The translations under genes and the position numbers were made by a program. DNA of 64,000 nt from a virus (Duplodnaviria; Heunggongvirae; Uroviricota; Caudoviricetes): IMG/VR virus record IMGVR_UViG_3300042880_000509. One strand, 5' to 3'. Below the pieces are notes generated by a model. The model saw only the letters and a program-made list of their open reading frames with translations, searched no databases and was not told the origin of the DNA. Of this stretch, positions 10,389 through 56,410 are shown piece after piece. The first letter of the stretch is position 1. Every line of letters starts with the position of its first letter.

Positions 10389-11086
10389 TATTGGTAAGTA
10401 TCTAAATTTATTTCTAATCTCATATCAGTTGGTTCGTAATCTTGATCTTTGGTAAAACCTTTTACAAAAATACTGTCACCCCAAACTATAATGTTTCCTT
10501 CAGCACCGGCTTCCATATTCCAAAACCTACTATTAGTTATTTTTTGCATAAGTTCATTAGTAATCATCCATAAATCTTCACTCATTTGATTGGTAATTTT
10601 AATTAGTTGTCCATCAAGTTCAAGATCGTAAATATGACCATCATCCCAACGACCATAAAAATCAAATTCAAATTTTACTAGGTCTTCATTATCTTCATAA
10701 AATGATAATATTCTTTCTTTACTTTCTTTTGACATATCACCATAATATGTATCATATTTAAATCTTTCTCTATTTTCAACTTTACATGAAGATGTAAAAA
10801 TAATTTTATTTTCAAATGGATGTATTTCAATATTCAAATACCAATATTCGTCAATATCTAAATCAAGATAGTTATAAAAATCATCCATGTGATTTTTAAT
10901 TAATTCTTCTATGAATTTTTCAAAATGTGATGGTAATAATAGTCTTTTTGTATTTCTTTGTTCATTTGTCACATCAAATCTACCCCAATCTTCAATGTGA
11001 GTCCTATCCATTACAATAGAAGTATCAACAAGATGTCCTTTGAGTCCTCTTAAAAAAGCAAAAAATAATTTTAATCTTTGTTTCAT
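10388..11086 (-). CDS. Tandem-paralog family member 3 (232 aa)
   Basis: MKQRLKLFFAFLRGLKG. Contains IHPFENKIIF and WNMEAGAEGNIIVWG. Shares 1 nt with the neighbouring gene. Confidence 0.65.
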   Translation of the reverse strand: MKQRLKLFFAFLRGLKGHLVDTSIVMDRTHIEDWGRFDVTNEQRNTKRLLLPSHFEKFIEELIKNHMDDFYNYLDLDIDEYWYLNIEIHPFENKIIFTSSCKVENRERFKYDTYYGDMSKESKERILSFYEDNEDLVKFEFDFYGRWDDGHIYDLELDGQLIKITNQMSEDLWMITNELMQKITNSRFWNMEAGAEGNIIVWGDSIFVKGFTKDQDYEPTDMRLEINLDTYQ

Positions 11087-11772
11087 TCTTCTATATTGTC
11101 CGGTGTTACATTTATATTCATTTCTGTCATCTCATGATCTTTGGATTTTGTAAAAAATTCCATTCTTATTGATTTATCTTTCTCAACGTAAATTGTACCG
11201 TAACTACCAGGTCCATCAGTCCACCATCTGTCAAGAATATTTGTCATTAATTGATCTGTTAACTCAATATAATTTATATCGTCATTTATAAAAATATAAA
11301 AATCAAGGTTAACATCTATTTGATCATAATTACCATTAAATTCAAAATTAAATTTATCTTTATCTTTTAGATCTTCATTAAATATTGTATCAACTAAATC
11401 AAGAGTAGTTGTTGATAATTGTGTATTTTTTCTATTTAAACTAAATGTTTGTTGGCCATCATATTCGCTTACTATCTCACATTCGCTTTGAAAATTTATT
11501 CTATTTTGTTTTGGGTAAACATATACAAGTAATGTCCACCATTCACTTTCATCATAATCGTTTTCTCTGTGAAACTTTTGCATATATGATTTTAATATGT
11601 CCTCAAATGTCTCTTGTAATTTTGTTGGTAATTCTATTTCTTTACCTTCTTTGGTTGTAAATTTTAAATCCCAACTTTCCATATGGTTATAGTCAAAATT
11701 GATATATGTATCCAATACATCTGTTTTAAATGCTCTAAAATATGCAAGTAATAATTTTAATTTTTGTTTCAT
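11083..11772 (-). CDS. Tandem-paralog family member 4 (229 aa)
   Basis: MKQKLKLLLAYFRAFKT. Contains VYPKQNRINF and WWTDGPGSYGTIYVE. 4-nt overlap with the neighbouring gene. Confidence 0.65.
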   Translation of the reverse strand: MKQKLKLLLAYFRAFKTDVLDTYINFDYNHMESWDLKFTTKEGKEIELPTKLQETFEDILKSYMQKFHRENDYDESEWWTLLVYVYPKQNRINFQSECEIVSEYDGQQTFSLNRKNTQLSTTTLDLVDTIFNEDLKDKDKFNFEFNGNYDQIDVNLDFYIFINDDINYIELTDQLMTNILDRWWTDGPGSYGTIYVEKDKSIRMEFFTKSKDHEMTEMNINVTPDNIEE

Positions 11773-12437
11773 TCTTCCAGGTCATCTTCTTTAATTTCAA
11801 TTGTATCATGACAATCAACCATTTCTCTCATATTCCATTCGTGAGAAATTACAATTTCCAAATTATTATTTAATTCAATTGTTCCGACAGATCCGTCATC
11901 TATCTCCCAACCACCGTAAGCGTTTTCTAGATTATCATAAAGTGTGTTCCAAATTAATTTATTGTCATCACTATCTGAATGCCAGGTAATGTTTGAACTT
12001 TCACCATCAACTGTTATTGAATCGATATCTCCGCTGTCTCCACCACCACTATATCTTGCTTCAATTATTTCAACACCAGTTGTTTTAAAATAATCTTCTA
12101 ATTCTGGGTTTTTTAATTTTCTTTCATAAGTTTCAGCTTGTGATGTATATTCTTCTGCTTTCATTGAAACCACAATTTTTTTATCTTTCGGGTATATGTC
12201 GGCAATTACATTATAGTAATCGCTTTCACTCCAGCAATCTATATCATTTATTTGATCTTCTATTGACTCTAAAATATCAGTAATAAGGTTAACAATATTT
12301 TTAGGTAGTGATTGTATTTCAACACCAAAAGGCCATTGCCATTCAGTATTACCATCATAATTGTTCCATATAACAGATATTTTGTCCTTTTTGAGTTTAG
12401 ACAAAAAAGACATTAACATTCTAAATTTTCTTTTCAT
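11769..12437 (-). CDS. Tandem-paralog family member 5 (222 aa)
   Basis: MKRKFRMLMSFLSKLKK. Contains IYPKDKKIVV, YSGGGDSGDIDS, GGWEIDDGSVGTIEL and SHEWNMRE. 4-nt overlap with the neighbouring gene. Confidence 0.65.
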   Translation of the reverse strand: MKRKFRMLMSFLSKLKKDKISVIWNNYDGNTEWQWPFGVEIQSLPKNIVNLITDILESIEDQINDIDCWSESDYYNVIADIYPKDKKIVVSMKAEEYTSQAETYERKLKNPELEDYFKTTGVEIIEARYSGGGDSGDIDSITVDGESSNITWHSDSDDNKLIWNTLYDNLENAYGGWEIDDGSVGTIELNNNLEIVISHEWNMREMVDCHDTIEIKEDDLEE

Positions 12438-18275: not shown

Positions 18276-19874
18276 ATGATACATTCACGTAAACTAATAT
18301 TATTTTCATCAATATCTTTGATGTTCATATTCCTATTAACTAAAACATTAATTTTATTAAATTTAGTTAGTCCTAGCGACATCACAAGGGTTATTGAAAT
18401 GTTTTGTTTTTTAACATTTTCACCATTATTTTATTTTTTAATGAAAAAACAAAATGTGGACTTGAAAAGTGGTTTATTAAAACAAATTAAAGATAGTGAA
18501 GAATTTATTGATTCCGCAACAATTGTTTCTGTTGCCGATAAGTATGGTAAAATCACATACGTTAATAAAAAATTTGAAGAAGTTTCTGGGTGGTCTTTAG
18601 ATGAGGTTAAAGGTATGGATCATAGTGTTGTTAACTCTGGCTTGCAACCTGATGGGTATTGGGGAAAGATGTATGAGACTGTAATGAAAGGTGAGATATG
18701 GAATGATGTTGTTACAAATAAAGGAAAGTCGGGTGAACTATATTATGTTGATACATACATCAAAGCAAAATTTGATAAGAAGGGTAAGTTAGATGGGTTT
18801 TCATCCATCAGACAAGATGTTACAGAACTTAAAAGAAAAGAAATGGAAATCCGTAATAGAATGAACGCAATAAATAAATCTAATGCTGTTATTGAGTTTG
18901 ATTTAGAAGGAAACATCATTTTTGCTAATGAATTGTTTTTAAATACTATGGGTTATTCTTCGCCGGATGAAGTAATTGGGAAACACCACAGAATTTTTAT
19001 TGATGAAGATCACTTAAAAAGTGAGGAATATTCTATTTTTTGGAAAAAACTAAATGATGGTATATTATTTACTGGTGAAATTACTAGAGTCAAAAAAGAC
19101 GGGTCTTTAGTTTATTTACAAGCAACTTACAACCCAATTATTGGTGTGGATGGTAAGATTTATCGTGTTATGAAAATAGCAACAGACGTAACCAATTCTT
19201 ATGAACAAAAGAAAGAGATAGAAAAGAAAAATACCTATTTAGAACACGCTGCTAAAATATTAAGACACGATATGCACTCTGGTATTAACACATATATGCC
19301 AAGAGGGTTAAGTTCTTTAGAAAGAAGGTTAAGTTCTGAAGATATTACATCGTTAAAGATTGAAGCTCCAATTAGAATGATTAAAGAAGGATTAAAACAT
19401 TCTCAAAAAGTATATAAAGGAGTTTATGAATTTACCAATCTAGTTAAAAAAGATGTTGTTTTAAATAAAACTGAATGTAATTTAAAATCAATTTTATCTG
19501 ATTACCTATCATCAACAGCATATTTAAGTCAAGTAATTATTGAAGACTTACCTACAATAGAAGTAAACGAAGCGTTATTTTGTACCGCAGTTGATAATTT
19601 AATTAGAAACGGTTTAAAATATAACGATTCAGATACCAAATTTGTTAAAATTTATTCCGATGAGAATAATATTTACATACAAGATAACGGTAGAGGAATC
19701 ACACAAGAAGATTTTGATCACTTATCTAAACCATACACAAGAAAAGAAGGGCAAAAAGAATCTGGTACTGGTTTAGGTTTAAATATTTGCGTTGCTATTT
19801 TAGAAGAGCACGGGTTTAATATTACTTGTGAGAAAAATGAAATAGGAACAAAAATGAAAATAAAAATAAAATAA
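18276..19874 (+). CDS. Membrane-anchored sensor histidine kinase with two PAS domains
   Basis: Two N-terminal hydrophobic helices. PAS 1: ATIVSVADKYGKITYVNKKFEEVSGWS...DGFSSIRQDVTE. PAS 2: AVIEFDLEGNIIFANELF...DGKIYRVMKIATDVT. H-box region AAKILRHDMHSG. HATPase_c N-box NLIRNGLKYN, G1 DNGRGI, G2 GTGLGLNI. Confidence 0.8.
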   Translation: MIHSRKLILFSSISLMFIFLLTKTLILLNLVSPSDITRVIEMFCFLTFSPLFYFLMKKQNVDLKSGLLKQIKDSEEFIDSATIVSVADKYGKITYVNKKFEEVSGWSLDEVKGMDHSVVNSGLQPDGYWGKMYETVMKGEIWNDVVTNKGKSGELYYVDTYIKAKFDKKGKLDGFSSIRQDVTELKRKEMEIRNRMNAINKSNAVIEFDLEGNIIFANELFLNTMGYSSPDEVIGKHHRIFIDEDHLKSEEYSIFWKKLNDGILFTGEITRVKKDGSLVYLQATYNPIIGVDGKIYRVMKIATDVTNSYEQKKEIEKKNTYLEHAAKILRHDMHSGINTYMPRGLSSLERRLSSEDITSLKIEAPIRMIKEGLKHSQKVYKGVYEFTNLVKKDVVLNKTECNLKSILSDYLSSTAYLSQVIIEDLPTIEVNEALFCTAVDNLIRNGLKYNDSDTKFVKIYSDENNIYIQDNGRGITQEDFDHLSKPYTRKEGQKESGTGLGLNICVAILEEHGFNITCEKNEIGTKMKIKIK

Positions 19875-19891
19875 AAAACAAAAAAAGAAAA

Positions 19892-20329
19892 ATGATTGAT
19901 TCAATTTTATTGGTGGATGATGAGGATTTATTCCATTTGGTGTTTGAGGATGCTTGTTCGTTATTAGACATAAGTTTGTCTTTAAATGCGTTAAATAGTT
20001 CTGACGAGGCAGCAAAACTATTTCAAAAATGGTTCCAGGATGGTGACAATAATGATAAACCTGAATGTGTGTTTGTTGACTTAAACATAATTGGTAGTTC
20101 TTTTGATGGTATAGAGTTAATTAGAAAAGTTAATTTTGAATATGGTAATCACGTAGTTATTGGTATCATATCATCATCAAACGAACCGGAAGAACAAGCA
20201 AAAGCGCTCCAGGCTGGTGCTCAATTCTGGATTATTAAATCAGATGATATTGAACCTCGTTTAGAAGAGTTCAGAAAAGATTATGATGGGTATAAAAATA
20301 GAACAGCACCATTTAAAGTATATAAATGA
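19892..20329 (+). CDS. Stand-alone response-regulator receiver (REC) domain protein
   Basis: ILLVDDE (acidic pocket), VFVDLNIIG (phospho-acceptor Asp), GIISSS (conserved S/T) and FWIIKS (conserved Lys). No output domain. Confidence 0.75.
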   Translation: MIDSILLVDDEDLFHLVFEDACSLLDISLSLNALNSSDEAAKLFQKWFQDGDNNDKPECVFVDLNIIGSSFDGIELIRKVNFEYGNHVVIGIISSSNEPEEQAKALQAGAQFWIIKSDDIEPRLEEFRKDYDGYKNRTAPFKVYK

Positions 20330-21000
20330 TAAGGTTAGATAAAAATAGTGAAACAGATTTAATTAAACTCTTTGAGTCCAAGAACGTTGGGCTTGAGGGG
20401 AATGTTATTAAATTAATTGAGTCTGATAACGACGAATTTAAAACCTATCTAACTAAATGTACTGATAAAGATAAAGATTCCAGACGTAAACGATTAGAGA
20501 TAACAAAAAAAATACAATTACAAAACAATGAATTATCTGATCTAAACGAACAGAATCAAAAGATGATGGAGGATCTTCAGTCCACACTAAAAGAAGCTGA
20601 AGAACAAAAAGTAAAAATTGAGGCTCAGAATGGTGAGTTAGTCGCTTGGAGAGAAGAGAACGAAAAGATACAACAGGAATTACAAAAGGAGATGATTAAA
20701 TCTGAAAGTGCAAGAATACGTGCCGAAGAAGCAAAGACAAACGCAATCAACGATCTTGACATCCTCCAAAAGAAAAACCAAACGGAATTAATATCAACAA
20801 TTGTAAGGGTTGCCCTTTATATTATTGTTGGTGTTGGTATTGTTACTACCGGAGTATATGTATTCACTATTGTTATGGGTAAAGACACACAAGTTATTAG
20901 TGCCGCTTGGTCAAACATATTTGGTATACTTCTAACAAACGCATTCTCAATTGTGGGAACCATTATGGGTATTAAATACGCAACAGAAAATAAACAATAA
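20326..21000 (+). CDS. Coiled-coil protein with two C-terminal transmembrane helices; possible lysis regulator/holin-like component
   Basis: About 150 aa of heptad-like E/K/Q-rich sequence, then IVRVALYIIVGVGIVTTGVYVFTIVMG and WSNIFGILLTNAFSIVGTIMGI. 4-nt overlap with the REC gene. Lies immediately upstream of the endolysin. Confidence 0.55.
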   Translation: MIRLDKNSETDLIKLFESKNVGLEGNVIKLIESDNDEFKTYLTKCTDKDKDSRRKRLEITKKIQLQNNELSDLNEQNQKMMEDLQSTLKEAEEQKVKIEAQNGELVAWREENEKIQQELQKEMIKSESARIRAEEAKTNAINDLDILQKKNQTELISTIVRVALYIIVGVGIVTTGVYVFTIVMGKDTQVISAAWSNIFGILLTNAFSIVGTIMGIKYATENKQ

Positions 21001-21010
21001 AATAAAAACT

Positions 21011-21835
21011 ATGTTATTAAAAGTAGGATCGAAAGGAGACGATGTAAAAAAACTTCAAGAAAAATTAGGATTAACGGCTGATGGTTCTTTTGGACCTAAA
21101 ACTGAAACGGTGGTAAAAGAATGGCAAACTAAAAACGGATTAACCGCTGATGGTATTGTTGGTGATGGTACTTGGGCTAAAATGTTCGGAACAACTCAAG
21201 TAGTTAAAGAAGATGTTGTGATTACACCAGTTGTAGGACTAAACGTTGAGAAACTAAAAGGTCACATTCCTGATGTTGTTATTGCACAGATAGCGGAAAC
21301 CGCAAAGAAATTTAACATTACAACAAATCTTAGACTTGCTCACTTTTTATCACAATGTGGACATGAGTCAGGAGGATTTAAAGCGGTATCAGAAAATTTA
21401 AACTATTCGGCTGACGGATTAAAAAGAACGTTTGGTAAATACTTTCCTGGTAACTTGGCAGAATCATATGCTAAACAACCAGAAAAGATTGCATCAAGAG
21501 TTTATGCTAACCGTATGAGTAACGGAGATGAAGCGTCAAAAGAGGGTTATAAATTTAGAGGGAGAGGTTATATTCAGTTGACAGGCAAAGGAAACTACAC
21601 AAGTTTTACTAAATTTATTGGTGAAGATTGTGTTGCAAATCCTGATCTTGTTGCTACTAAATACCCATTGGCATCTGCCGCATTTTTCTTTGATTCAAAT
21701 AAACTTTGGTCAATATGTGATAAAGGTGCTGATGATGCTGCGGTAACTGCGGTAACAAAACGAGTAAATGGGGGAACCATAGGACTTGCTGATAGAATCA
21801 AACACTTTAAAGAGTATTATAATTTGTTAAAATAA
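21011..21835 (+). CDS. Endolysin: N-terminal peptidoglycan-binding domain plus GH19 glycoside hydrolase domain
   Basis: PG_binding_1 motif KLQEKLGLTADGSFGPKTETVVKEWQTKNGLTADGIVG. GH19 motifs FLSQCGHESGGF and YKFRGRGYIQLTGKGNY. Start chosen at 21011 (MLLKVGSKGDD). Confidence 0.85.
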   Translation: MLLKVGSKGDDVKKLQEKLGLTADGSFGPKTETVVKEWQTKNGLTADGIVGDGTWAKMFGTTQVVKEDVVITPVVGLNVEKLKGHIPDVVIAQIAETAKKFNITTNLRLAHFLSQCGHESGGFKAVSENLNYSADGLKRTFGKYFPGNLAESYAKQPEKIASRVYANRMSNGDEASKEGYKFRGRGYIQLTGKGNYTSFTKFIGEDCVANPDLVATKYPLASAAFFFDSNKLWSICDKGADDAAVTAVTKRVNGGTIGLADRIKHFKEYYNLLK

Positions 21836-24264: not shown

Positions 24265-24559
24265 TACTTCCGTTGTCTGAACTGTGCCATTCCATTACTC
24301 TACCGGTGTTTGGTTTCTCTTCACATTTAATCGCATAAAAGATCTGACATCCCGCAATTATAATTTCTTTACCATTTCCACCAACAACCGCATACCAGTT
24401 GGCACTATTCCTGTTGGTTTTAACTCCAAGGATTGCGTCCTCCACGATTTTAACATCACCCCAAACCGCTTGATAGGATAATCCATCTGGTGCTGTAAAG
24501 TATTTTTCTGTTGTTATTAGGTATTTTCCTTCCATACTACTTCTTTTTGAATTGTTCAA
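24221..24559 (-). CDS. Hypothetical protein (112 aa)
   Basis: ORF. Confidence 0.45.
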   Translation of the reverse strand: MNNSKRSSMEGKYLITTEKYFTAPDGLSYQAVWGDVKIVEDAILGVKTNRNSANWYAVVGGNGKEIIIAGCQIFYAIKCEEKPNTGRVMEWHSSDNGSIVENERPTKIYIAQ

Positions 24560-24740
24560 ATAATTGTTGGGTAGTTATAACTCTGTTAGGGTATTTATTA
24601 TCTTGTACTCTACACCAATTAGCAAATTCTAACACTTCTTCCTCACTGTACACTTTTTTAGATTTTCTTTTAGTTTCAATTTTATCTCTTATGGACTTCA
24701 TTCTGTCCTGACATTTTTTCACTAATTCTGCTGTTTTCAT
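24537..24740 (-). CDS. Hypothetical small basic protein (67 aa)
   Basis: ORF. Confidence 0.4.
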   Translation of the reverse strand: MKTAELVKKCQDRMKSIRDKIETKRKSKKVYSEEEVLEFANWCRVQDNKYPNRVITTQQLFEQFKKK

Positions 24741-25508: not shown

Positions 25509-26204
25509 CTAATTTTCTAAATTCATTTTTAAAATTCCAATATGTTTTTTAATTTCATCTCTATATTGTTTAGCGATCACCCAAGGCGCCGTGGTACAAT
25601 TAAAATTATTTTCATTTATAAATTGTTTTACTCTGGTTTGTTCTTCTTCTAACAGATTTATCTGTTTTTTAATTTCTTCGCCCATATTATTTATTTTATT
25701 TAATGTTTCTTGTTTAGGTTCTTCTTGTGGAATGATGATTTTGTAATTCTCGTAAATACCTTCTTTAATAGTACCATCAGCAAATCTATCAATGTATTTA
25801 CCATCTTCCATTCTTTCAATCTCAACACACTCACAACTTGGATTCTTTACAAACCAATTCAAGAACTCATCATCAATAGCTTGAACACCATCTGCAATTA
25901 ACTCTGGGTCTGTTGTTAGAATGATTTTTTTGCAAGCATTTAATACTTCAGTAACTCCATCTTGAAATCTAATTATACCTATATTTGATTTAATTTCTAC
26001 TACTTTATGGACTAATTCTTCAGAACATAAACACCAATCTCCTTCTTTAATTTCTTCATTGGAAGTGATGTAGATATTATAATCTTGAAACCAATCTTCT
26101 TCTATTACATTTTCAAAATCATTATCTATTGTAAATATAGAATCTTTTTTATTGTAAAATAATCTACTTGGTTTTTCTGTTGGTAATAAATGTATGTTTT
26201 TCAT
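25509..26204 (-). CDS. Hypothetical protein, duplicated family (paralog of 29801..30580)
   Basis: The N-terminal 130 aa (MKNIHLLPTEKPSRL...KIILTTDPELIADGVQAIDDEFLNWFVKNPSCECVEI) align with those of the gene at 29801..30580. Confidence 0.6.
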   Translation of the reverse strand: MKNIHLLPTEKPSRLFYNKKDSIFTIDNDFENVIEEDWFQDYNIYITSNEEIKEGDWCLCSEELVHKVVEIKSNIGIIRFQDGVTEVLNACKKIILTTDPELIADGVQAIDDEFLNWFVKNPSCECVEIERMEDGKYIDRFADGTIKEGIYENYKIIIPQEEPKQETLNKINNMGEEIKKQINLLEEEQTRVKQFINENNFNCTTAPWVIAKQYRDEIKKHIGILKMNLEN

Positions 26205-26263
26205 ATTTTTTAAATTTCTTATACAAACTTAAACAATCTATTTTGATTTGAAAAGTATTTTTA

Positions 26264-26293
26264 GTTAAAATGGGTGTAAACCCCTATGAAAAT
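26264..26293 (-). repeat. 30-nt conserved intergenic element (copy 1) upstream of the duplicated gene; contains a GGGT-GTAA-ACCC hairpin
   Basis: GTTAAAATGGGTGTAAACCCCTATGAAAAT is identical at 30645..30674. Both copies lie 60-75 nt upstream of the paralog start codons on the minus strand. Confidence 0.6.
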
Positions 26294-26318
26294 TAGTATA
26301 AATACTGTTCTTAATTTA

Positions 26319-27185
26319 CTATTGACATACCCAATTCCAAGTTGGGAAGTTTTTATTTCTTATCCTATCTCTTACACTACTGTCTGGCATATTAAAATAT
26401 TTTGCAGCTTCAACCGCAGAATTAAATAACAAACCATCAATCATACATTTTTTAGCTTGTGGTTTTGGTGGTTCTATCAATGCGTATTTTTCTTTTCTTT
26501 TTTCATTCGCTAATTTTGATATTTCTTTACCACCAATTCTACCTTTTTTCCATCCCTCTTCAATAATTCTTGGATCATCAGGTAATGTCCTTAAATGTTC
26601 TCCTTTATCATTATAAAACCACAACTTATTTTTGTGTGCGATTGACATTTTTTCTTTTGTTTTGTCAGTGTGTCTGTGATCAGAACTTTTTTTTCTTAAT
26701 ATTTTTAGTGTCTCATCTGTATGTTTTTTTCCGTAGAATGAATTTTTTTCACCGCCATATTTACCAATTCTTGATAAACTAATTTTGTTTCTTTGTTCTT
26801 CTGTAAGTTTTTTACCAAAATTTGGATTATTAGTCCCTCTTATACTTTTAGAATAATCTTCCTTTATTAAATCATATAACCTTGAATTTATTTTATGTCT
26901 TTCTTGGTATTCTCTCTTAACATTACACATATTCCATAATGCAAATCTTAATTTTGTGTTTTTAGGGTAAATTTCACATAAAAGTAAATGACAGATGAAA
27001 TGTTCTCTAGCGGTTAAAACAACTAAATTCCAAACATCATTTGACCCCCCAAGACATTTTGGTATGATGTGATGTGTTTCTGTGTATCCAGTGATAGTTC
27101 TATTTTTACCTCTTTCAACAATACTATTATAAATTTTCAAATAATCCATCGGTTTCCGTATATTATATAAATATATGGAAACCAA
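26319..27185 (-). CDS. Freestanding HNH homing endonuclease with NUMOD-like DNA-binding repeats
   Basis: HNH motif ETHHIIPKCLGGSNDVWNLVVLTAREHFICH. Repeated GKK(L/H)T(E/D)E..-K(I/M)S modules (NPNFGKKLTEEQRNKISLS, NSFYGKKHTDETLKILRKK). Likely start at the internal MDYLKIYNS. Confidence 0.8.
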   Translation of the reverse strand: MVSIYLYNIRKPMDYLKIYNSIVERGKNRTITGYTETHHIIPKCLGGSNDVWNLVVLTAREHFICHLLLCEIYPKNTKLRFALWNMCNVKREYQERHKINSRLYDLIKEDYSKSIRGTNNPNFGKKLTEEQRNKISLSRIGKYGGEKNSFYGKKHTDETLKILRKKSSDHRHTDKTKEKMSIAHKNKLWFYNDKGEHLRTLPDDPRIIEEGWKKGRIGGKEISKLANEKRKEKYALIEPPKPQAKKCMIDGLLFNSAVEAAKYFNMPDSSVRDRIRNKNFPTWNWVCQ

Positions 27186-27193
27186 CGAAAAAC

Positions 27194-28024
27194 CTAAATT
27201 GCCAACTCTAATTTTGAATTTATTTTAGTTATACCGTCAATACCGGTAATCTCAAAATCATCAATTGTATAGTCGTAGAAGTTTTTATTTTCCTTTAAAA
27301 TTAACTTTGGTTGTGTGTCTAATGGTTCCTTGTTTAATAGTTCTGAAACACCATCAAAATGTCTATCATATATATGAAGGTTTTGGACTAAATGACAGAA
27401 CTTACCAACTTTATAACCACAATGTCCCGCAACCATCATTTGTAAAGCCAAATATTGCACTTTATTAATATAACCCGCAACCAAATAATCGTTTGATCTT
27501 TGGACCAACGTCATATCCAAAACCTTATCTTTATCAACTTTTCTAACCGAACAGAGTATTTCATAAGCACAAGGAAATAAACCATTTGTTTCTTCTAAAT
27601 CAACATATTGATACATACTAATAATATGCCTTCTACCAAATGGATCATTAACTAATCCATCAAGTAGTTTATTCATCAAATCATATCTTTTGATTGTTGC
27701 ACCATATCTCTGACCAATACTATTATCTCCAATATTCCATTCTTCCCACCAGTTAATACCCATCTCACGAGCAACATCAAGTGATGAAGTTTGTTTTTGG
27801 TATATCCAAAGTATTTCTTTAATTCCGGTTTTAATTGCAGTATTCCTTAATGTTGTAATTGGAAACTCACCTTTTAAAATATCATATTCTTCAAATACCT
27901 GTGTGATAAACTTTGAGTGTGATGGTGTCCCATCCTCGTATTTTGGTCTTGGGTTTTCATCCCAAGAACCTTCTGACATAATCTTTGATAAGTTCTGAAT
28001 ATAATATTTGTCGGCTTTACTCAT
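27194..28024 (-). CDS. thyA: Thymidylate synthase (ThyA; long T4-td-like form)
   Basis: FPITTLRNTAIKTGIKEILWIYQ. RRHIISMYQ...FPCAYE (catalytic Cys). QRSNDYLVAGYINKVQYLALQMMVAGHCGYKVGKFCHLVQNLHIYDRH matches the ThyA C-terminal block. Confidence 0.9.
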   Translation of the reverse strand: MSKADKYYIQNLSKIMSEGSWDENPRPKYEDGTPSHSKFITQVFEEYDILKGEFPITTLRNTAIKTGIKEILWIYQKQTSSLDVAREMGINWWEEWNIGDNSIGQRYGATIKRYDLMNKLLDGLVNDPFGRRHIISMYQYVDLEETNGLFPCAYEILCSVRKVDKDKVLDMTLVQRSNDYLVAGYINKVQYLALQMMVAGHCGYKVGKFCHLVQNLHIYDRHFDGVSELLNKEPLDTQPKLILKENKNFYDYTIDDFEITGIDGITKINSKLELAI

Positions 28025-28586
28025 AACTTTCTATTGTTTTATCGTTGTATGTCACTGTGATTAGTTTGGTTGGAATATTATAAGGTGTGTTATCTACATT
28101 AGTAGGAACCATCATATTAGCTAAAAGACCGTATTTTTCTTTCCATATTGGGAGGGCTATTTTATACCTTTCTTCCAAACTCAACTCTCGTTCTTCAATT
28201 TTTAATCCCCACTTTTCAGAGAACTCTTTATTGGTTTTACATTTATCGATGAACTCTTCTTTCGATAAAAGTTTTATTAGATCCACTTTAAGACGTTTTC
28301 GTTGACTTCTCAATCTATTAACTTCTTCTTTCTGTAATTCTCTTTGTCTTATAATTTCCTTTTTATAGTTCTCATAAGCCTCATTCAATAAATCTGGTTG
28401 TTCCTCATTATAATGTTCCAATTGATTTTCGTTGAAGATATGTAATAATCCGTATTCATCCATTTCACCAATCACCCGGATGTCGCCATTAATTGTTTCA
28501 AATACACCTACAATTGTACAAGGAAATTTATAACCTTTTGGTTTGTGAGCCTTGTCTCCCACTTTAAATTTTGTTTCTTTATTCAT
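28017..28586 (-). CDS. Hypothetical protein (189 aa) with central coiled-coil
   Basis: ORF. 8-nt overlap with thyA. Confidence 0.5.
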   Translation of the reverse strand: MNKETKFKVGDKAHKPKGYKFPCTIVGVFETINGDIRVIGEMDEYGLLHIFNENQLEHYNEEQPDLLNEAYENYKKEIIRQRELQKEEVNRLRSQRKRLKVDLIKLLSKEEFIDKCKTNKEFSEKWGLKIEERELSLEERYKIALPIWKEKYGLLANMMVPTNVDNTPYNIPTKLITVTYNDKTIESYE

Positions 28587-28594
28587 CTTTTATT

Positions 28595-28822
28595 TTATTT
28601 GTATATTGATGGTCTTGAATTAAGTCTTTGACTCAATAATGTTTCCTTGAAGCACTTAACAAATTCTTCTTTTATGTCTTCAACAACATTATCATTACCC
28701 CACACCATTACATCTTTTTTAACCCTATCTTTCCAGTGATAATTTGTTGGGTAGTTATATAAAAGGAAGTTCTCCATTTCTTCCATAGTAAATGAAAGTT
28801 CTATTTTAATTTGTTCACTCAT
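28595..28822 (-). CDS. Hypothetical protein (75 aa)
   Basis: ORF. Confidence 0.4.
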   Translation of the reverse strand: MSEQIKIELSFTMEEMENFLLYNYPTNYHWKDRVKKDVMVWGNDNVVEDIKEEFVKCFKETLLSQRLNSRPSIYK

Positions 28823-29306
28823 AATCTTTATAATAGTATTTGTCTAATAATTCTCTACATTTTTTTGTAACATATTCCAATGTCCAATTTTGTTTAAAAC
28901 CATCTTTAAATCCTTCTTCACCTTTTGAAATCCATTCAATTGCAAATGCGAAGTTTTCAAAATCTTTTTCCATTTGGCTAAGGTAAGAATTTGTTTCAAG
29001 TAATTCTGTAATATCATAACCATTCTTATGTAACCATAAAACCACTTTGGAATTATCAAAATGTAATATGCAATTGTCCTGACCATCGTGAAACTCAATG
29101 CCTATAATTGAACGGCCACCAAATGTTATTTGTTGTTTACCATTTTCAGTAATCACCGGTTCAAATGATAGTTTCTTAAACCAATAATATTTCTCATTTG
29201 GATAGACAAATTTTAAAATATCTTTTGCTTCGTCTTCTGTTAGTTCTTTAATGTTTTTCATATTTATTTCATTAAAATTCGTGTTTTCCTGGTTTAATTT
29301 TTCCAT
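28815..29306 (-). CDS. Hypothetical protein (163 aa)
   Basis: ORF. Confidence 0.5.
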   Translation of the reverse strand: MEKLNQENTNFNEINMKNIKELTEDEAKDILKFVYPNEKYYWFKKLSFEPVITENGKQQITFGGRSIIGIEFHDGQDNCILHFDNSKVVLWLHKNGYDITELLETNSYLSQMEKDFENFAFAIEWISKGEEGFKDGFKQNWTLEYVTKKCRELLDKYYYKDYE

Positions 29307-29559
29307 CCAGAATATCTTTCATAACTTTTGGTTGGTAATCTTCAAGTAATTGTTTTTGCGTTACTTCCCACCCAATTGGTGGTAATGAATAATCTTCAAA
29401 ATATGTATACCTGATCATTCCTTGAATGTTTTCACCACACTCTTTAACTTCTTCGGTTTCGTGGATTGTTGCCTCAAATTTACCTTCCCCAATATGTTTA
29501 ATTGTGTAACCCATCTTCATCTTTGCTTTGTTATTTAATACCAATTCCCTCTCCGTCAA
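29272..29559 (-). CDS. Hypothetical protein (95 aa; may start at the internal Met, 29523)
   Basis: ORF. Uncertainty over the start comes from a possible small overlapping gene at 29531..29710. Confidence 0.4.
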   Translation of the reverse strand: MTERELVLNNKAKMKMGYTIKHIGEGKFEATIHETEEVKECGENIQGMIRYTYFEDYSLPPIGWEVTQKQLLEDYQPKVMKDILDGKIKPGKHEF

Positions 29560-29710
29560 GGTATATTAACTTTACCGTTTCACCATCACCTATAATTGTT
29601 AAAGTGGGATATTCATCATCTGGAACAGGATGGGTGGGTTTTATTTCATAACGATATTCATAACAAAGTTTATCCACTTTATCAAGAAACTCTTTCATTT
29701 TATTTGTCAT
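29531..29710 (-). CDS. Possible small ORF (59 aa) in an otherwise unannotated 240-nt gap
   Basis: Manual translation gives MTNKMKEFLDKVDKLCYEYRYEIKPTHPVPDDEYPTLTIIGDGETVKLIYLDGEGIGIK. It falls below the track's 60-aa cutoff. Confidence 0.3.
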   Translation of the reverse strand: MTNKMKEFLDKVDKLCYEYRYEIKPTHPVPDDEYPTLTIIGDGETVKLIYLDGEGIGIK

Positions 29711-29800
29711 CTCTTAAATTTTGATTTGAATTTCATCCACACTATTTCAGGATAATTCCATAACCACCAAAAAAATATATAAAATTTTTTCATCAGTCAA

Positions 29801-30580
29801 TCATTTTATATGTTGTTTCTTTTTAAATTGTTCAAATGATTCTTCATTTATTGTAAAGCTCATTACACCAAGTGCTTTAGCAACAGATATTTCAATTGCA
29901 TTCTTTAGTTCTTCCTCACTATACATTCTTTCAGATTGGTATTTAGCACCTAACCTAACTCCATCATAAAAAGATAAATCTATATCATCTTGTAATCCCT
30001 TTTGGTAAGTTCTTTCAGCAGCTTCTTCAAGTGTTTCATCTTTACTAGTACCTGACTTCTCTCTCATCTCTTGTAAGTCCTTAGTAACTTTTTCCTTGTT
30101 TGTTAAAAGATATTCCCTAAGTGCTAATTTAGCATTTTCTAGTGTAGGATCTTGTTTAGGTTTTTCTTGTGGAATGATGATTTTTAGAAAAGAAGTAATT
30201 TCGGAAATATCACTTAAAACGCCACTATGATATTTTCTAATCTCTACAAACTCACAACTTGGATTCTTTACAAACCATTCTAAGAACTCATCATCAATAC
30301 TCTGAACACCCTCTTCAATTAACTCTTGGTCTGTTGTTAGAATAATTTTCTTACCATTATAATTAACACCTGATACTAAACAATATATATTACTATCCTC
30401 ACCTAAATAATATTCGTCAAATTTAATTTCTTCATCAGAAGTTATGTATAAATGATAATTCTTACAATGTCCTTTTGGTGTGTTAGTTAATCCATTAGTA
30501 TAAAGTTTAATGGATGAACTCCCACCAGGTTTAGTTAACCTACTTGGTTTTTCTGTTGGTAATACGTGTATGTTTTTCAT
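29801..30580 (-). CDS. Hypothetical protein, duplicated family (paralog of 25509..26204)
   Basis: MKNIHVLPTEKPSRL...KIILTTDQELIEEGVQSIDDEFLEWFVKNPSCEFVEI. The C-terminal half diverges from the paralog. Confidence 0.6.
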   Translation of the reverse strand: MKNIHVLPTEKPSRLTKPGGSSSIKLYTNGLTNTPKGHCKNYHLYITSDEEIKFDEYYLGEDSNIYCLVSGVNYNGKKIILTTDQELIEEGVQSIDDEFLEWFVKNPSCEFVEIRKYHSGVLSDISEITSFLKIIIPQEKPKQDPTLENAKLALREYLLTNKEKVTKDLQEMREKSGTSKDETLEEAAERTYQKGLQDDIDLSFYDGVRLGAKYQSERMYSEEELKNAIEISVAKALGVMSFTINEESFEQFKKKQHIK

Positions 30581-30644
30581 ATTTCTTATTTTTTAATTGT
30601 TAAGACAAAATTAGGAAAAATATTTGGTTTTAAAAAATTTTTTT

Positions 30645-30674
30645 GTTAAAATGGGTGTAAACCCCTATGAAAAT
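30645..30674 (-). repeat. 30-nt conserved intergenic element (copy 2)
   Basis: Identical to 26264..26293. Flanking bases are also similar over about 45 nt. Confidence 0.6.
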
Positions 30675-30686
30675 AAGGATAAACCC

Positions 30687-31013
30687 CTACTCCTTTTCTA
30701 TTTCTATTTCCGGTTTAACTTTAGTTGGTTTGTGTCCTCGTTTTTTTGAAACAAATTTTTCTTGGAACTTTTTATCTTTCTCAAAGATTTCAATAAATTC
30801 CTCCAATGTAAATTCTCTTACTTTATACTCATTTGGGTCGTCCATCAAATAATCATAATCTGGTTCTTCCAATGTTTTACAAAACTCAAGATATCTTTCA
30901 TAAGATTTTTTAAGTTTTTCATAATCTGTATCGTCTTCAATAACGATTTTTACTGGTTCAGGGAATAACATATTCATTCCAATTCCCAAATTTACTTCTA
31001 TTACTTTTTCCAT
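30687..31013 (-). CDS. Hypothetical acidic protein (108 aa)
   Basis: ORF. Confidence 0.45.
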   Translation of the reverse strand: MEKVIEVNLGIGMNMLFPEPVKIVIEDDTDYEKLKKSYERYLEFCKTLEEPDYDYLMDDPNEYKVREFTLEEFIEIFEKDKKFQEKFVSKKRGHKPTKVKPEIEIEKE

Positions 31014-31036: not shown

Positions 31037-32305
31037 TTATAAAAACAACTTTTTTGATTGTTTTTCTCTGTGAAATTTAATCGCAAAACGGTGAACTTCT
31101 TCCTGGATTTTACCAAACAAAGTAAAGTTTATATCATCTTTTATGTTAAACTCGGATCCATCAATTTTATGTATGATTGATGATTTGTGATTTGAATCTT
31201 TTGAAATTGAAATAAGGTCAACTTGGTCTAAAATTCCAAGATTTTCAAATACTTTTCTGGCAACACCTAATTGACCTTTACCACCATCAATGATTACAAG
31301 ATCCGGAAGTTTTTGTTTTTCATCAAGTAATCTTTTGAATCTACGGTTTAATACCTCATCAAATGATTGGTAGTCATCAACACCGGTAAAACTTCTAATG
31401 ATATATTTACGGTACTCTGATTTATCCGGAGTTTCATTTTTAAATCTAACTGATGCTGCAACATTTGAATCGCCCTGGTTGTGTGAGTTATCAAATGCTT
31501 CAATTGATACTGGAATGTTTTTAAGACCCAGAACATTTTTAATATCAAAAGCTTTTTTGTTATATTTCTGTAATCTTATAACATTCAACTTACTATCAAT
31601 ACTTTCCAAACTTGTAAGTTTTGATAATAAGTCTTGTGCTTTTTCAAACTCCAGATTGTCAGAGTAATACTTCATAGACTTCTTCAACTTTGTTTTAAGA
31701 CTGGAAATATCAAGTGATAGAACTTTTTTCACATCACGAATAATCTCATTGTAATAAAACTTTTTGATGTTATTCACGCAAGGAGCATTACATCTTCCCA
31801 AGTGAAATTCCAAACAGGTCTTGAACTTTTCTTTTGTGATATTTTCTTCCGTTAAATCATAAGAACAACTACGAAGTTCAAAGACATCGTGAATAAGATT
31901 ATAGATCTCACGACATAACATTCCGGAAGTAAAATCCAAACTTACTCTGTCGTCTTGTTTGTCTCTTACAATCTCTAGTTTTGGAAATTCTTCTTCTGTA
32001 AAGCACAAAGACCATTTTCTGGTCTTATCATCTTTTCCTTTGATGTTGAACTTTGGTTTGTATAACTTGATTAGTTCTTCTTCTAGGATAATTGCTTCTT
32101 GTTCTGATGATGTAATCTTGAACTCAACATCAACAATGTTTTCAACAAGGGTTTTTGTTTTGCCTGTATGATTTTTTTGAAAATAAGATGAAACCCTTTT
32201 TGGTAAAAACTTGGACATACCAACATAGATGATTTGTTCTTTGTCGTTTTTGAACAAATAACAACCTGCATTTTTTGGTATGTCTTTAAGTTTTTCTAAT
32301 ATCAT
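31037..32305 (-). CDS. UvrC-like nuclease (GIY-YIG domain plus UvrC RNase-H-like endonuclease domain), lacking the C-terminal HhH region
   Basis: GIY-YIG motif GCYLFKN...IIYVGMSKFLPKRVSSYF. UvrC-homology region LIKLYKPKFN. Cys-rich motif RSCSY...GRCNAPCV. C-terminal IEAFDNSH...YRKY...DDYQSFDEV...PDLVIIDGGKGQL. Only 422 aa compared with about 610 for bacterial UvrC. Confidence 0.8.
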   Translation of the reverse strand: MILEKLKDIPKNAGCYLFKNDKEQIIYVGMSKFLPKRVSSYFQKNHTGKTKTLVENIVDVEFKITSSEQEAIILEEELIKLYKPKFNIKGKDDKTRKWSLCFTEEEFPKLEIVRDKQDDRVSLDFTSGMLCREIYNLIHDVFELRSCSYDLTEENITKEKFKTCLEFHLGRCNAPCVNNIKKFYYNEIIRDVKKVLSLDISSLKTKLKKSMKYYSDNLEFEKAQDLLSKLTSLESIDSKLNVIRLQKYNKKAFDIKNVLGLKNIPVSIEAFDNSHNQGDSNVAASVRFKNETPDKSEYRKYIIRSFTGVDDYQSFDEVLNRRFKRLLDEKQKLPDLVIIDGGKGQLGVARKVFENLGILDQVDLISISKDSNHKSSIIHKIDGSEFNIKDDINFTLFGKIQEEVHRFAIKFHREKQSKKLFL

Positions 32306-33312: not shown

Positions 33313-33540
33313 TTATTTTAATAATTCTCTTCTTTTATTTTCTATACTCTCTTCAAGTGGCCAAATTACATCATATTGATATGTATTCCAATATTTATCT
33401 GGAGTATTTTTCATCAATTGTTTTCTAAAGTTTCTAATTAATCTCTTAGCGGTAAATGTTTGTTCTATTGTTTCACAAGAATCAATTATCTTTTCAATCC
33501 AGTTTGATACGTCTCCGTAGTGTGTGCTTCTATTTTCCAT
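33313..33540 (-). CDS. Small protein, paralog of 32779..33006
   Basis: See 32779..33006. Confidence 0.45.
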   Translation of the reverse strand: MENRSTHYGDVSNWIEKIIDSCETIEQTFTAKRLIRNFRKQLMKNTPDKYWNTYQYDVIWPLEESIENKRRELLK

Positions 33541-33560
33541 AAGTCAAAGATACAAAACTT

Positions 33561-33600
33561 TTTTTAAAAAAACAAACCCCAACTTTTAGAATTGGGGTTA
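33561..33600 (-). terminator. Intrinsic terminator (AACCCCAA...TTGGGGTT plus T-run on the minus strand)
   Basis: 8-bp stem. Minus-strand downstream sequence is TTTGTTTTTTTAAAAAAAG. Confidence 0.65.
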
Positions 33601-43029: not shown

Positions 43030-43253
43030 TCTTCTTTTTTCATTGCCACCCTAATACCGTCAATTGTTACAAATACCTCATCTGTAAAAACCATTGGGTC
43101 TTCCATTTTTGTGGGGTCTATTTTAATTTTATTGTAATAGACACTCTCATTTGCAAACCTAACTAATACTTCAACTTTCTCTGACATAACTTTTGTGAAA
43201 TGATATATGTTCTTCAATTTGTTTTTCCAATTCCTCTTTAGCAATTTCAACAC
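43002..43253 (-). CDS. Hypothetical small protein (83 aa; possibly starting at the internal Met)
   Basis: ORF overlapping the end of 43171..44310. Confidence 0.35.
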   Translation of the reverse strand: MLKLLKRNWKNKLKNIYHFTKVMSEKVEVLVRFANESVYYNKIKIDPTKMEDPMVFTDEVFVTIDGIRVAMKKEDWNTLEQWK

Positions 43254-44310
43254 GAATTTTTAAATCTTCATCAAATTTCTTTTTTTCTTCCATTATTTCT
43301 TCCGTTTCAGATTCAACATCTTCTTCGTATGGTTCAAGAACGGGCATTGGTATTAATCTTGCGGTTCTTCTTAAACGACGAAGTGCTGGTGCTGGTGCGT
43401 CTATATATCCTGGTAATTCATCCGATATCTTCATTTCTTCTACACAAAGATTATCTTCCGGTAATGATCCATTGTATTTTCTCATTTCATTTTTTTCATC
43501 TTCAGAAAATAACCTATAATTTGGAATTGTTGTTGGTGATTTTAAATCACATTCCATTAAAATTATCTGGAGGATATTCATTGGAAGACCGGTCTGTATT
43601 GTATCAATTTGTTTATCTTCCTGGTTATATGTTTTAAACACATATTGTTCGTGATCATCCATCATTTCATATGGTTGTGGGAAACTTCTATAAAAAGCAA
43701 ACTTTTTATTTTCTTTTTTATCAATAAGATAAATTAAGATTCCTCTTGAATGGTTGTAGAAATAACCGGGATCATTAATCATTGCTGTACACCATTTTGT
43801 TTGATACCCATATGAACAAGATGACGCATAGGTCAATGGTTTAAAAATCATATAATTATCGTCTTCAAAAATCTTGTGAATTTCTTTTTTTGATTTTTTA
43901 AACAACTCACGATTCTTGGCTTCAAATAATTGTGTTTCCAACATATCCCAGGAATCGTATTTACTGATGTCTTTTTCATCAATCACACCTTTTTCCATTA
44001 ATTCTGTAAACTCAACAAATCTTTCCATACTATTCCAAGTAAATACGAAATCACAAAAAAAGATTCTTGATAACATGTTTTCAAAAGAATTATTTGGTAC
44101 AACTCTTTCTAATGGAGGTTGGTTTGTTTCTTGTATTCTAAATTTTCTATTTTCATCTTGTTCTTTTTGCCACGATTCAATTCTTTTATTAATCATTTTA
44201 ACCAAAAACTGTGAATATTTTTTGGTTTTACTTGTATCAAATCTTTCCAACATATTGGCAAGATTTAAATTTAAAATTTCATTTTCTTTTTTTAATTTCT
44301 TAATTCCCAT
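43171..44310 (-). CDS. Hypothetical protein (379 aa), paralog of 54542..55603; acidic C-terminal tail
   Basis: Shared block FEDDNYMIFKPLTYASSCSYGYQTKWCT vs HEDDTWLVLTPLSFDASRVYGSNTKWCT. N-terminal blocks are also similar. Confidence 0.6.
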   Translation of the reverse strand: MGIKKLKKENEILNLNLANMLERFDTSKTKKYSQFLVKMINKRIESWQKEQDENRKFRIQETNQPPLERVVPNNSFENMLSRIFFCDFVFTWNSMERFVEFTELMEKGVIDEKDISKYDSWDMLETQLFEAKNRELFKKSKKEIHKIFEDDNYMIFKPLTYASSCSYGYQTKWCTAMINDPGYFYNHSRGILIYLIDKKENKKFAFYRSFPQPYEMMDDHEQYVFKTYNQEDKQIDTIQTGLPMNILQIILMECDLKSPTTIPNYRLFSEDEKNEMRKYNGSLPEDNLCVEEMKISDELPGYIDAPAPALRRLRRTARLIPMPVLEPYEEDVESETEEIMEEKKKFDEDLKIRVEIAKEELEKQIEEHISFHKSYVRES

Positions 44311-44885: not shown

Positions 44886-44944
44886 TCATCTTTAAAACCT
44901 TGTTTTTCAGTTGTTTTTAAATGGGTGTTGATATATATTAGTTA
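44886..44944 (-). repeat. 59-nt intergenic repeat, copy 1 (begins exactly at the stop codon of the methyltransferase gene)
   Basis: TCATCTTTAAAACCTTGTTTTTCAGTTGTTTTTAAATGGGTGTTGATATATATTAGTTA on the plus strand. The copy at 50801..50859 differs at one position. Confidence 0.7.
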
Positions 44945-45736
44945 GTTGCAATACTGCGAAGCCCTCCGAACAGCAACATCGTAATATTGTTTTTCCTTTT
45001 CTATTCCAATTGATTTGCGATTTAATTTGATACAAGCCAAATTGGTAGTTCCTGAACCCATTGTATTATCCAATACCATATCACCTTCGTTTGTGTATGA
45101 TTTCACAAGCATTTCAAGTAAAGCAAGCGGCTTCTGAGTTGGATGTATCGTTCCATCAAGCTTTGTTTTTTGTTTATCTGAAGCAAAAACTTGTACACTT
45201 CTTGGGTATCTGTCAGTTTCTCCACCACCACTTACATCTTGCTTTACTTTCCCATACACTTCTGTTTTATTACAAACTTCGGCTTTCTTGGTATAGGTAT
45301 TTACAGGCTTATGTCCTTCTGTTTTTTGTGGATTAAACTTTGGGGTTTTATTGTAAAATACTAAAATATTTTCGTGTGCTTTCATAGGCATTTTCTTTGC
45401 ATTAAAATATCCTGTTGCTTGTGTTTTCTCCCAAATCCATTCGTATTTTAACCATTCCAAATTTGAGCAACCAAGCACTTTATCAAATGGTGTTTGTGCA
45501 AATAAAACTACCACTCCATTATCTTTTAGTATTCTTTTGTATTGCTCCCAAAGTTTATTTAAGTCTAAAACAGAATCCCATTTGCAGTTAGTAGTTCCAT
45601 AAGGCAAATCGCAAATAATAGCATCAATTGATTTATCATCAATAAAAGGAAAAACATCAAAGCAATCAGCTTTCACAAAAGTACTGCCACTAACACGTGT
45701 TTGGCAAAATGGCTGTTCAGTAATTCTATCAATCAT
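44942..45736 (-). CDS. DNA methyltransferase (N6-adenine/N4-cytosine family, beta-class order)
   Basis: Motif IV DAIICDLPYGT (DPPY-like) is N-terminal. The C-terminal AdoMet motif VLDNTMGSGTT places it in PF01555-like architecture. Confidence 0.8.
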   Translation of the reverse strand: MIDRITEQPFCQTRVSGSTFVKADCFDVFPFIDDKSIDAIICDLPYGTTNCKWDSVLDLNKLWEQYKRILKDNGVVVLFAQTPFDKVLGCSNLEWLKYEWIWEKTQATGYFNAKKMPMKAHENILVFYNKTPKFNPQKTEGHKPVNTYTKKAEVCNKTEVYGKVKQDVSGGGETDRYPRSVQVFASDKQKTKLDGTIHPTQKPLALLEMLVKSYTNEGDMVLDNTMGSGTTNLACIKLNRKSIGIEKEKQYYDVAVRRASQYCN

Positions 45737-50692: not shown

Positions 50693-50720
50693 ATTACAAA
50701 GATATAAAACTTTTTTTAAT

Positions 50721-56401: not shown

Positions 56402-56410
56402 ATTTTAATA

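Follow-up and report, generated by a model that had tools for sequence, protein, structure and literature searches.

A predicted hairpin-promoter cassette, a mosaic gene family and a putative homing endonuclease beside thyA in a hyperplastic phage region

The locus and the material compared

The locus described here is carried by a 64 kb stretch of DNA (64,000 nucleotides with a GC content of 29.6%, referred to below as the window) from the Caudoviricetes virus record IMGVR_UViG_3300042880_000509. It consists of two paralogous genes, A and B, each of which is preceded by a copy of a short intergenic element, here called the cassette. A and B lie on either side of an interval of 3,596 nt which contains a gene for an HNH/NUMOD3 endonuclease, the thymidylate synthase gene thyA, five small open reading frames (ORFs) and a mini-ORF of 28 codons. 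A first-pass annotation of this DNA had already described a segment of about 3.6 kb with the endonuclease, thyA and five small ORFs between the two genes, and this description is accurate apart from the mini-ORF, which was overlooked. Genes A and B, both cassettes, thyA and the HNH gene are all located on the minus strand, where the order of features is UvrC-like gene, o108, cassette with gene B, mini-ORF, o59, o95, o163, o75, o189, thyA, HNH gene, cassette, gene A and o86. The locus is a hyperplastic region of an uncultivated phage and probably belongs to its early region. The host is probably to be sought among freshwater Flavobacteria, as six of the ten genome matches were metagenome-assembled genomes of Flavobacterium or Flavobacteriales. 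Among 50,697 phage records no match was found either to the region from 24.5 to 31.5 kb (megablast) or to protein A (tblastn), and the comparisons below are made with related loci and contigs (L numbers) and with homologs of the A/B protein family (P numbers).

Genes A and B and their family

25509..26204, minus strand: gene A, 231 amino acids (aa), with a beta-rich N-terminal domain and a C-terminal helical hairpin
29801..30580, minus strand: gene B, 259 aa, with N-terminal anchors as in A, variable segments unlike those of A and 'YSEEE...FEQFKKK' as its C-terminal module
24537..24740, minus strand: o67, a free-standing copy of the C-terminal module of B (hidden Markov model of the module, E=1.5e-13)

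The proteins encoded by A and B share 48% identity over 167 aa (BLASTP, E=3e-35) and the similarity ends after about residue 166 in A and residue 144 in B, which bears out the earlier observation that the two genes have a common N-terminal region and then diverge; both ORFs are real. Searches of the window with tblastn and self-blastn found no third copy. At the DNA level A and B are 69-75% identical overall with patches of 87-97%, and a codon alignment places three such patches (A residues 1-16, 92-130 and 156-166) at 87-94% nucleotide identity, separated by stretches of 38-46% identity which are no better than random. Of the 75 positions with identical residues in these patches, 62 have the same codon in both genes, against 38.7 expected under synonymous saturation. 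The two genes have not diverged uniformly, because conserved patches alternate with near-random stretches, and the even similarity that would be expected along the repeats of a recent segmental duplication is not found between them. Judged from these alignments, A and B are mosaics with common anchors and not the products of a recent duplication. The kinship between o67 and the C-terminal module of B is also seen as the direct repeats D9 and D20.

The A/B family is very large, belongs to phages of the Bacteroidota and is often present in several copies. An exhaustive profile search recovered 8,791 clusters at 50% identity, 4,210 of them with E<=1e-30, and two to six family members lie within 20 kb of each other in 14 of 79 loci. 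The family has no significant match in Pfam and no meaningful match in PADLOC, its only PHROG is one of unknown function, and a PDB sequence search returned nothing. The predicted model of the N-terminal domain gives generic small-barrel matches only, and its structural matches in BFVD are uncharacterised phage proteins throughout. An alignment of 40 homologs contains four near-invariant anchors (MKNIHLLPT-KPSRL, NIYITSDEEIKEGDW, KKIILTTDQDLI-DGVQAIDDEFLEWFVKNPSCE and YKIIIPQEEPKQ), between which variable segments occur in discrete alternative forms and after which alternative C-terminal modules follow; in some proteins of the family the N-terminal domain is present twice. In the 68 homologs that were parsed the four variable parts comprise 29, 28, 18 and 27 types, and for every pair of parts all four combinations of some two types occur. 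The natural chimeras P0057-59 combine an A-type second variable segment (V2) with a B-type C-terminal module. The longest anchor, compared in 71 distinct copies from diverse contigs, is 79% identical at the DNA level and uses the same codon in 77.7% of cases versus 58.5% expected, the synonymous choice being specific to the position (for example GAC versus GAT, or AAG versus AAA). It is proposed that the variable segments and C-terminal modules are reassorted by recombination, with the anchors conserved even at synonymous sites.

The upstream cassette

26208..26311, minus strand: cassette copy 1, with optional left arm, GGGGTTTACACCC mini-hairpin core and T-run, and promoter arm P1 (nhmmer, E=6e-27)
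26224-26231, minus strand: -7 box of copy 1, TAAGTTTG, a match to TAnnTTTG
26264..26293: first copy of the exact 30 nt repeat (cassette core)
30590..30693, minus strand: cassette copy 2 (nhmmer, E=8.5e-21)
30606-30613, minus strand: -7 box of copy 2, TAATTTTG, a match to TAnnTTTG
30645..30674: second copy of the exact 30 nt repeat
30648-30667, minus strand: extra A-type core of copy 2
30670-30689, minus strand: degenerate B-type half-core of copy 2; its TAG serves the ORF upstream as stop codon

The same 30 nt sequence had been reported before each of the two genes, and the match is indeed exact and embedded in 61 nt of 87% identity between the two copies. The 27 nt core has exactly two matches in the window at up to three mismatches (0.00 expected from shuffled sequences), and an nhmmer profile of the cassette likewise finds only two copies, the next match having E=0.73. 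Related phages contain 25 distinct copies of the element, which is about 100 nt long, intergenic and composed of three sub-modules. An optional left arm (AGTATTTACACYGAT..) is followed by a mini-hairpin core that occurs as GGGGTTTACCCCC, GGGGTTTACACCC, loop-inverted GGGGTAAACCCCC and TAGGGGTTTACCCTA, the last with an extended 5-bp stem (TAGGG/CCCTA), and then by one of two promoter arms, of which P1 is TAAGTTTG with a T-rich -33 region before it and P2 is TTTG-N20-TATATTTG. The GGGG-loop-CCCC stem is preserved although the loop is inverted in some variants (TTTA/TAAA). At the level of motifs, this core and its T-run are followed some 31-32 nt further on by TAnnTTTG, which corresponds to the -7 box of Flavobacterium sigma-A at -12 to -5 (PMC9723704). 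The distance from the box to the ATG is 27 nt in copy A and 33 nt in copy B, and TAnnTTTG occurs 18 times upstream of start codons in the window versus 8.9 expected. A scan for sigma-70 promoters was uninformative (55 found, 56 expected). In several contexts the TAG of the core doubles as the stop codon of the upstream gene.

The cassette is found in many different surroundings. A scan of the relatives with arm P1 only places it before at least 12 downstream genes and behind at least eight upstream flanks; the same upstream flank leads into three different genes, and gene A stands behind two different flanks. The densest relative, L088, has up to four or five copies in 5.9 kb. The homology of both L088 and L082 to the window starts at position 26289, which is within the core, and L082 shares with the window only the cassette, A and o86, at 99% identity. 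A 71-aa gene is inserted between its cassette and A, and the rest of this contig, 9 kb with genes for a sigma factor and a resolvase, bears no relation to the window. At the thyA junction of L103 only the cassette is shared, and the gene that follows it is a different one. From its sequence the element is a portable cassette composed of a mini-hairpin and a predicted Bacteroidota-type promoter. The hairpin itself is weak, and its role may be that of an attenuator or of a protein-binding palindrome. A function of the core merely as terminator of the upstream gene was considered and rejected as its sole role; the core travels with the downstream gene, since the element is missing behind o108 in genomes without the B module.

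The identity of the two 30 nt sequences has a separate history. Orthologues of B in L101, L102, L110 and L007 have a single B-type core, TAGGGGTTTACCCTATATTTT, which starts at the stop codon of o108, and the B cassette of the window has a degenerate B-type core followed by an extra 22 nt unit that is identical to the A core. As the orthologues carry a different single core, the exact 30 nt repeat is a lineage-specific addition, and the extra A-type core was gained by tandem core duplication or by conversion from the A cassette. The proposal that A and B are a duplicated gene bracketing a cassette is not supported, given that the paralogs are mosaic and the 30 nt identity is confined to this lineage.

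In two relatives the cassette lies directly after what appears to be the 3' end of a tRNA gene (GGTTCGAGTCCTGTCCTGACTACA), namely in L095:150-200 and in L088, upstream of the cassette that precedes the gene beginning MEKEFVPYEL. Scans of the window for tRNA genes and for Rfam families found none.

The interval between A and B

31037..32305: UvrC-like gene, upstream of o108
30687..31013, minus strand: o108, the conserved left flank of the variable region
29794..30686, minus strand: B module, an 893 nt indel composed of cassette copy 2 and paralog B
29707..29793, minus strand: hydrophobic mini-ORF MKKFYIFFWWLWNYPEIVWMKFKSKFKR, the right flank of the B-module indel
28017..29710, minus strand: five small ORFs, o189, o75, o163, o95 and o59

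In L103, L109 and L168 the B module is replaced by 16 nt (TAAACGATTAAAGATT) between the o108 stop codon and the mini-ORF. The mini-ORF, which overlaps the start of the next gene by ATGA, is kept in these three relatives and stands there directly behind o108. The B module and the HNH module are separate indels, each with clean junctions. In essentially every relative some of the small ORFs are missing or differ in number, and in L156 they are ordered differently. The o189 family (window 28017..28586, minus strand; L101:3097-5627) is itself mosaic in that the N- and C-terminal halves match separately, and up to four o189-like genes stand in tandem upstream of thyA in relatives. Presence or absence of the bracketed segment as a whole is not seen in the relatives; its components vary independently, and none of the approximately 200 fetched loci contains the deletion product in which o108 would be joined through a single A/B gene to o86. 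One family member on each side of thyA is found again in the divergent L191, with other alleles.

The interval is a patchwork of independently gained and lost genes and not one mobile block; the two slots are recurrent, and the A/B pair is not a moving unit. The first-pass annotation had suggested that the repeats may mark a mobile or recently rearranged cassette, and had named an identical arrangement in all related genomes as the outcome that would speak against it. Such an arrangement was not seen, because indel polymorphism is abundant among the relatives. What stands of the suggestion is that the region has been rearranged recently and repeatedly and that the upstream element marks recombination junctions; what does not is the idea of a pair bounding one mobile or deletable unit, in view of the independent indels and the missing deletion product.

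The endonuclease gene and thyA

26307..27193, minus strand: HNH module, an 887 nt insertion exactly between the thyA TAG and the cassette
26319..27185, minus strand: free-standing HNH/NUMOD3 ORF, probable ATG start at 27149
27194..28024, minus strand: thyA, thymidylate synthase (PF00303, E=3e-61)

The HNH protein matches phrog_655, 'homing endonuclease' (E=7e-57), and NUMOD3 in three stretches (E=2e-16), and in addition shows Pfam matches to HNH (E=0.012) and I-TevI_DNA-bd (E=4e-5) which both lie below the curated cut-offs. The junction at the thyA stop codon is variable in its content. The HNH gene is located there in the window, L102, L127/128/162 and L130, in L103 and L109 the TAG of thyA is directly adjacent to the cassette with no endonuclease gene between them, and a GIY-YIG gene (MIIYKTTNLVNQKFYVGKD) takes the same position in L100, L110, L113 and L133. 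The 3' end of thyA in two of the latter (L100 and L113) is identical to that of the window over 171 nt. The ATG of the GIY-YIG gene (L100:1486-1600, L110:6828-6950, L133:2186-2400 and L113) is preceded by a hairpin, GGTAAGGAGGTAATACC, which would sequester AGGAGG and recalls the translational control of T4 endonucleases.

The block formed by HNH, A, o86, o75b and o67 has 100% protein identity in ten contigs and the adjacent thyA only 86-98%. In bins of 100 nt the identity to the window jumps from 72-86% to 100% at about position 27,350 in L085/86/87/89 and from 84% to 100% at about 27,806 in L080/81/83/84, so that there are two classes of junction within thyA, near 27,300-27,400 and near 27,800. 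All eight contigs then remain at 100% through HNH, the cassette and A and for at least 2.3 kb past A. The recently transferred block, which starts within thyA, takes in HNH and A and continues for at least another 2.3 kb, is therefore not delimited by the repeats. Co-conversion tracts have been described for free-standing homing endonucleases (PMC2988022), and the identity steps in thyA fit this pattern, as they also fit ordinary homologous recombination.

A different arrangement of related genes is seen in L190:10796-12868 and also in L191-L195, where a divergent thyA is split into ORFs of 152 and 254 aa by a 56-aa ORF and a 206-aa HNH-like ORF, the latter 37% identical to the window HNH in L190. 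A search of the split thyA of L190 for a group I intron gave no Rfam match at E<0.01. L192 contains an extra thyA-like ORF of 384 aa upstream.

A combined explanation and its precedents

The locus is probably explained by three processes in combination, namely the mosaic evolution of a large protein family, the spread of a portable hairpin-promoter cassette and the activity of a homing endonuclease next to thyA. The cassette would consist of a GGGG-loop-CCCC mini-hairpin with a T-run, acting as attenuator or protein-binding site, and then of a Bacteroidota sigma-A promoter (T-rich -33, TAnnTTTG -7). It may serve as a homology patch for the exchange of gene modules, given that many genes of related phages have nearly identical copies between them, and in this it would resemble the promoter-early stem-loop (PeSL) elements of T4-type phages. 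The HNH protein would be a homing endonuclease that inserted between the thyA stop codon and the cassette and has recently spread together with flanking DNA; its target would probably be the last ~150 bp of thyA or the thyA/cassette junction.

Several observations weigh against this explanation. The hairpin of copy A is weak, with 4 bp and a dG of -4.7 kcal/mol (z=-0.4), the RNA folding of the copy A intergenic regions is not significant (z=-0.9 and -0.4), and copy B folds better (z=-2.7) only because of its extra half-core. A terminator scan did not call the core, and the stem variants are all G-C and so leave nothing for covariation to test. Arm P1 has TTTC/TTTT in place of TTTG as its -33 element, and the promoter and terminator roles rest on motif matches. 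That junctions lie at cassette edges could be due to selection for intact genes, without crossing-over being favoured there, and the junctions in thyA could stem from ordinary homologous recombination at the first conserved gene beside a variable region, with no part played by the endonuclease. With a cassette on one side only, the B-module indel resembles a moron more closely than it does a cassette-to-cassette exchange. Finally, the comparison sequences are all metagenomic contigs from short reads, many of them probably from one lake system.

PeSLs are composed of a promoter and a GGGG...CCCC stem-loop which flank ORFans and mediate indels in the hyperplastic regions of T4-type phages (Arbiol et al. 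2010, PMC2839356; Comeau et al. 2014, PMC4122927). They are the nearest precedent of the cassette, whose own promoter and terminator activities are predicted from motifs. Both are small composite intergenic elements with a host-type promoter and a short stem-loop of G and C tracts, here at motif level, and both have sub-classes. Both are repeated before many unrelated small ORFs in hyperplastic regions, although for the cassette this applies to the relatives and the window has only two, and in both cases breakpoints of indels or replacements between related phages coincide with the element. The cassette differs from PeSLs in its promoter, which is of the Bacteroidota type (TAnnTTTG at -7) and not of the sigma-70 type with -35 and -10 boxes, in its copy number, with two copies in this genome and up to four or five in about 6 kb in relatives, and in the TAG of its core, which in several contexts also terminates the upstream gene. 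Given the Bacteroidota-type promoter and the lack of T4-like hallmark genes among the largest ORFs of the window, the cassette is best regarded as an analogue or variant of the PeSLs and not as a member.

The endonuclease has its parallels in the free-standing homing endonucleases of T-even phages, such as mobE in nrdA/nrdB and the seg genes, and in the td/I-TevI system (reviewed in PMC2988022). Like these, it combines HNH with NUMOD3 and I-TevI-like DNA-binding modules, is located between genes beside a conserved gene of nucleotide metabolism, is polymorphic in presence with an alternative GIY-YIG gene at the same site, and is flanked by tracts reaching into its neighbour that would fit co-conversion, though also ordinary homologous recombination. 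The classic target of such enzymes is thyA (td). Unlike I-TevI, the window HNH is free-standing downstream of thyA and not borne by an intron, and cleavage is predicted. The split thyA of L190-L195 likewise differs from td in being interrupted by a related HNH-type ORF without a detectable group I intron. The B module resembles morons, which are units of promoter, gene and terminator between conserved phage genes, in that it takes the place of 16 nt between genes that are adjacent in relatives. Its regulatory part however is a conserved, repeated cassette common to many genes, which classic morons do not need.

In the gp38 adhesins of T4-superfamily phages, conserved glycine-rich motifs reportedly bound hypervariable segments and would act as small recombination sites. 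The A/B family is similar in that short conserved motifs alternate with variable segments prone to swapping; it is unrelated to gp38 in sequence, fold, function and its non-structural location, is multi-copy, and has whole C-terminal modules swapped as well. We tentatively suggest that Bacteroidota phages may possess in this family a combinatorial diversification system of their own, in which the four anchors conserved at the DNA level would be built-in recombination sites, three structural segments and the C-terminal module would be swapped among paralogs and co-infecting phages, and the hairpin-promoter cassette would carry whole genes between slots and unrelated backbones. The product could be a fast-evolving factor for host interaction, takeover or counter-defence, and the shuffling would be analogous to, and independent of, that by T4 PeSLs and in gp38 adhesins.

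Alternative explanations

The core could mainly be an operator to which a regulator of the phage or of its host binds, or else a promoter element peculiar to the phage, which co-regulates A and B and is associated with junctions only incidentally. This is unlikely. In its favour, the core is near-palindromic (GGGGTTTACCCC, together with the loop-inverted variants), as the site of a dimeric binder would be, it occurs in this genome at A and B only, the RNA hairpin is thermodynamically weak, and ACACCCATT occurs nine times in the window versus 0.74 expected, including in two other intergenic repeats. The B orthologues however have a different core variant and co-regulation through identical sites is thus not conserved, while the cassette precedes at least 12 unrelated genes in relatives and no homolog of the L082-type sigma factor was found when it was looked for in the window. 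A regulatory role would moreover be compatible with the cassette also being a recombination linker.

The first-pass annotation had proposed that A and B with their upstream elements are the direct repeats of a segmental duplication, through which the HNH-thyA segment could be duplicated, deleted or mobilised as one. The repeats extend over ~490 nt at 69% identity with patches of up to 97% and 30 nt that are exact, L191 likewise has a family member on either side of thyA, with other alleles, and recombination of the PeSL type can excise intervening ORFs as circles (PMC2839356). We nevertheless regard this proposal as improbable, since no fetched locus has the o108-(A/B)-o86 product, B, HNH and the individual small ORFs come and go separately, each at junctions of its own, the recently shared block from within thyA to beyond A does not end at the repeats, the variable parts of the mosaic paralogs cannot be aligned, and the B orthologues lack the exact 30 nt identity. 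More improbable still is that the shuffling is an artefact of metagenome assembly in which co-occurring strains were misjoined at a repeat of ~100 nt or in thyA. Repeats and mixtures of strains are known sources of chimeric contigs, and short-read contigs of the kind compared here are exposed to both. Against misassembly, the thyA junction near 27,350 recurs across samples and sources in L085 (from NCBI), L086, L087 and L089, cassette contexts recur in L094/L103, L092/L096 and L116-L121, the exact shared stretches of ~80-100 nt are below typical read length, and the window itself has both copies.

Other features of the window

Nine genes of the window have TAnnTTTG starting 12-13 nt before the ATG, for example at 3797 on the plus strand and at 16136, 32317, 33552, 38897, 41987, 50704, 56004 and 56395 on the minus strand. 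Their mRNAs would be leaderless, because the box lies at -12 to -5. Leaderless mRNAs have been reported at 5.5% for F. psychrophilum, a proportion that these nine genes would far exceed.

A second class of composite repeat is found on the minus strand at 33535-33597, 50687-50752 and 56375-56438, and combines a terminator hairpin (CCCC...GGGG, with T-run) with an A-rich stretch after it and then a TATNTTTG box that directly precedes the ATG. A 75 nt intergenic repeat, also on the minus strand, occurs at 44870-44944 and 50785-50859 with 95% identity and contains the sequence CAACACCCATT[T/C]AAAAAC, which is similar to the cassette core; the ~560 nt after its first copy (44311-44870) are without a minus-strand ORF.

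A block of plus-strand genes at 18276..21835 encodes a PAS-domain histidine kinase (18276..19874), a receiver-domain protein (19892..20329), the product of an ORF of unknown function and a PG_binding+GH19 lysin (21011..21835). It is located amid otherwise phage-like DNA and is 99.5% conserved in L081, and the kinase and receiver genes may form a phage-borne two-component system. The window has further paralogs in a tandem array of four ORFs of ~225 aa (9711..12437, minus strand; 20-34% identity), two DNA methyltransferases (44942..45736 and 47496..48281; 44% identity) and a pair of uncharacterised proteins of ~360 aa (43171..44310 and 54542..55603; 30% identity).

Implications for phage genome plasticity

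Modular shuffling by small regulatory cassettes is known so far chiefly from T4-type coliphages and related phages, and no paper that links PeSLs with Flavobacterium phages was found in the literature searched. If the cassette is a clear analogue with a Bacteroidota promoter, this would suggest that terminator-promoter linkers are a convergent and general route of phage genome plasticity, and it would provide a concrete, testable element for freshwater Flavobacterium phages. The 3' junction of thyA, which in different genomes is occupied by an HNH gene, occupied by a GIY-YIG gene, empty or associated with a split thyA, is a natural experiment in the turnover of homing endonucleases. The A/B family with its ~8,800 clusters has no annotation in Pfam, in PADLOC or from named phages, and its architecture of anchors and variable segments makes it a candidate arms-race factor.

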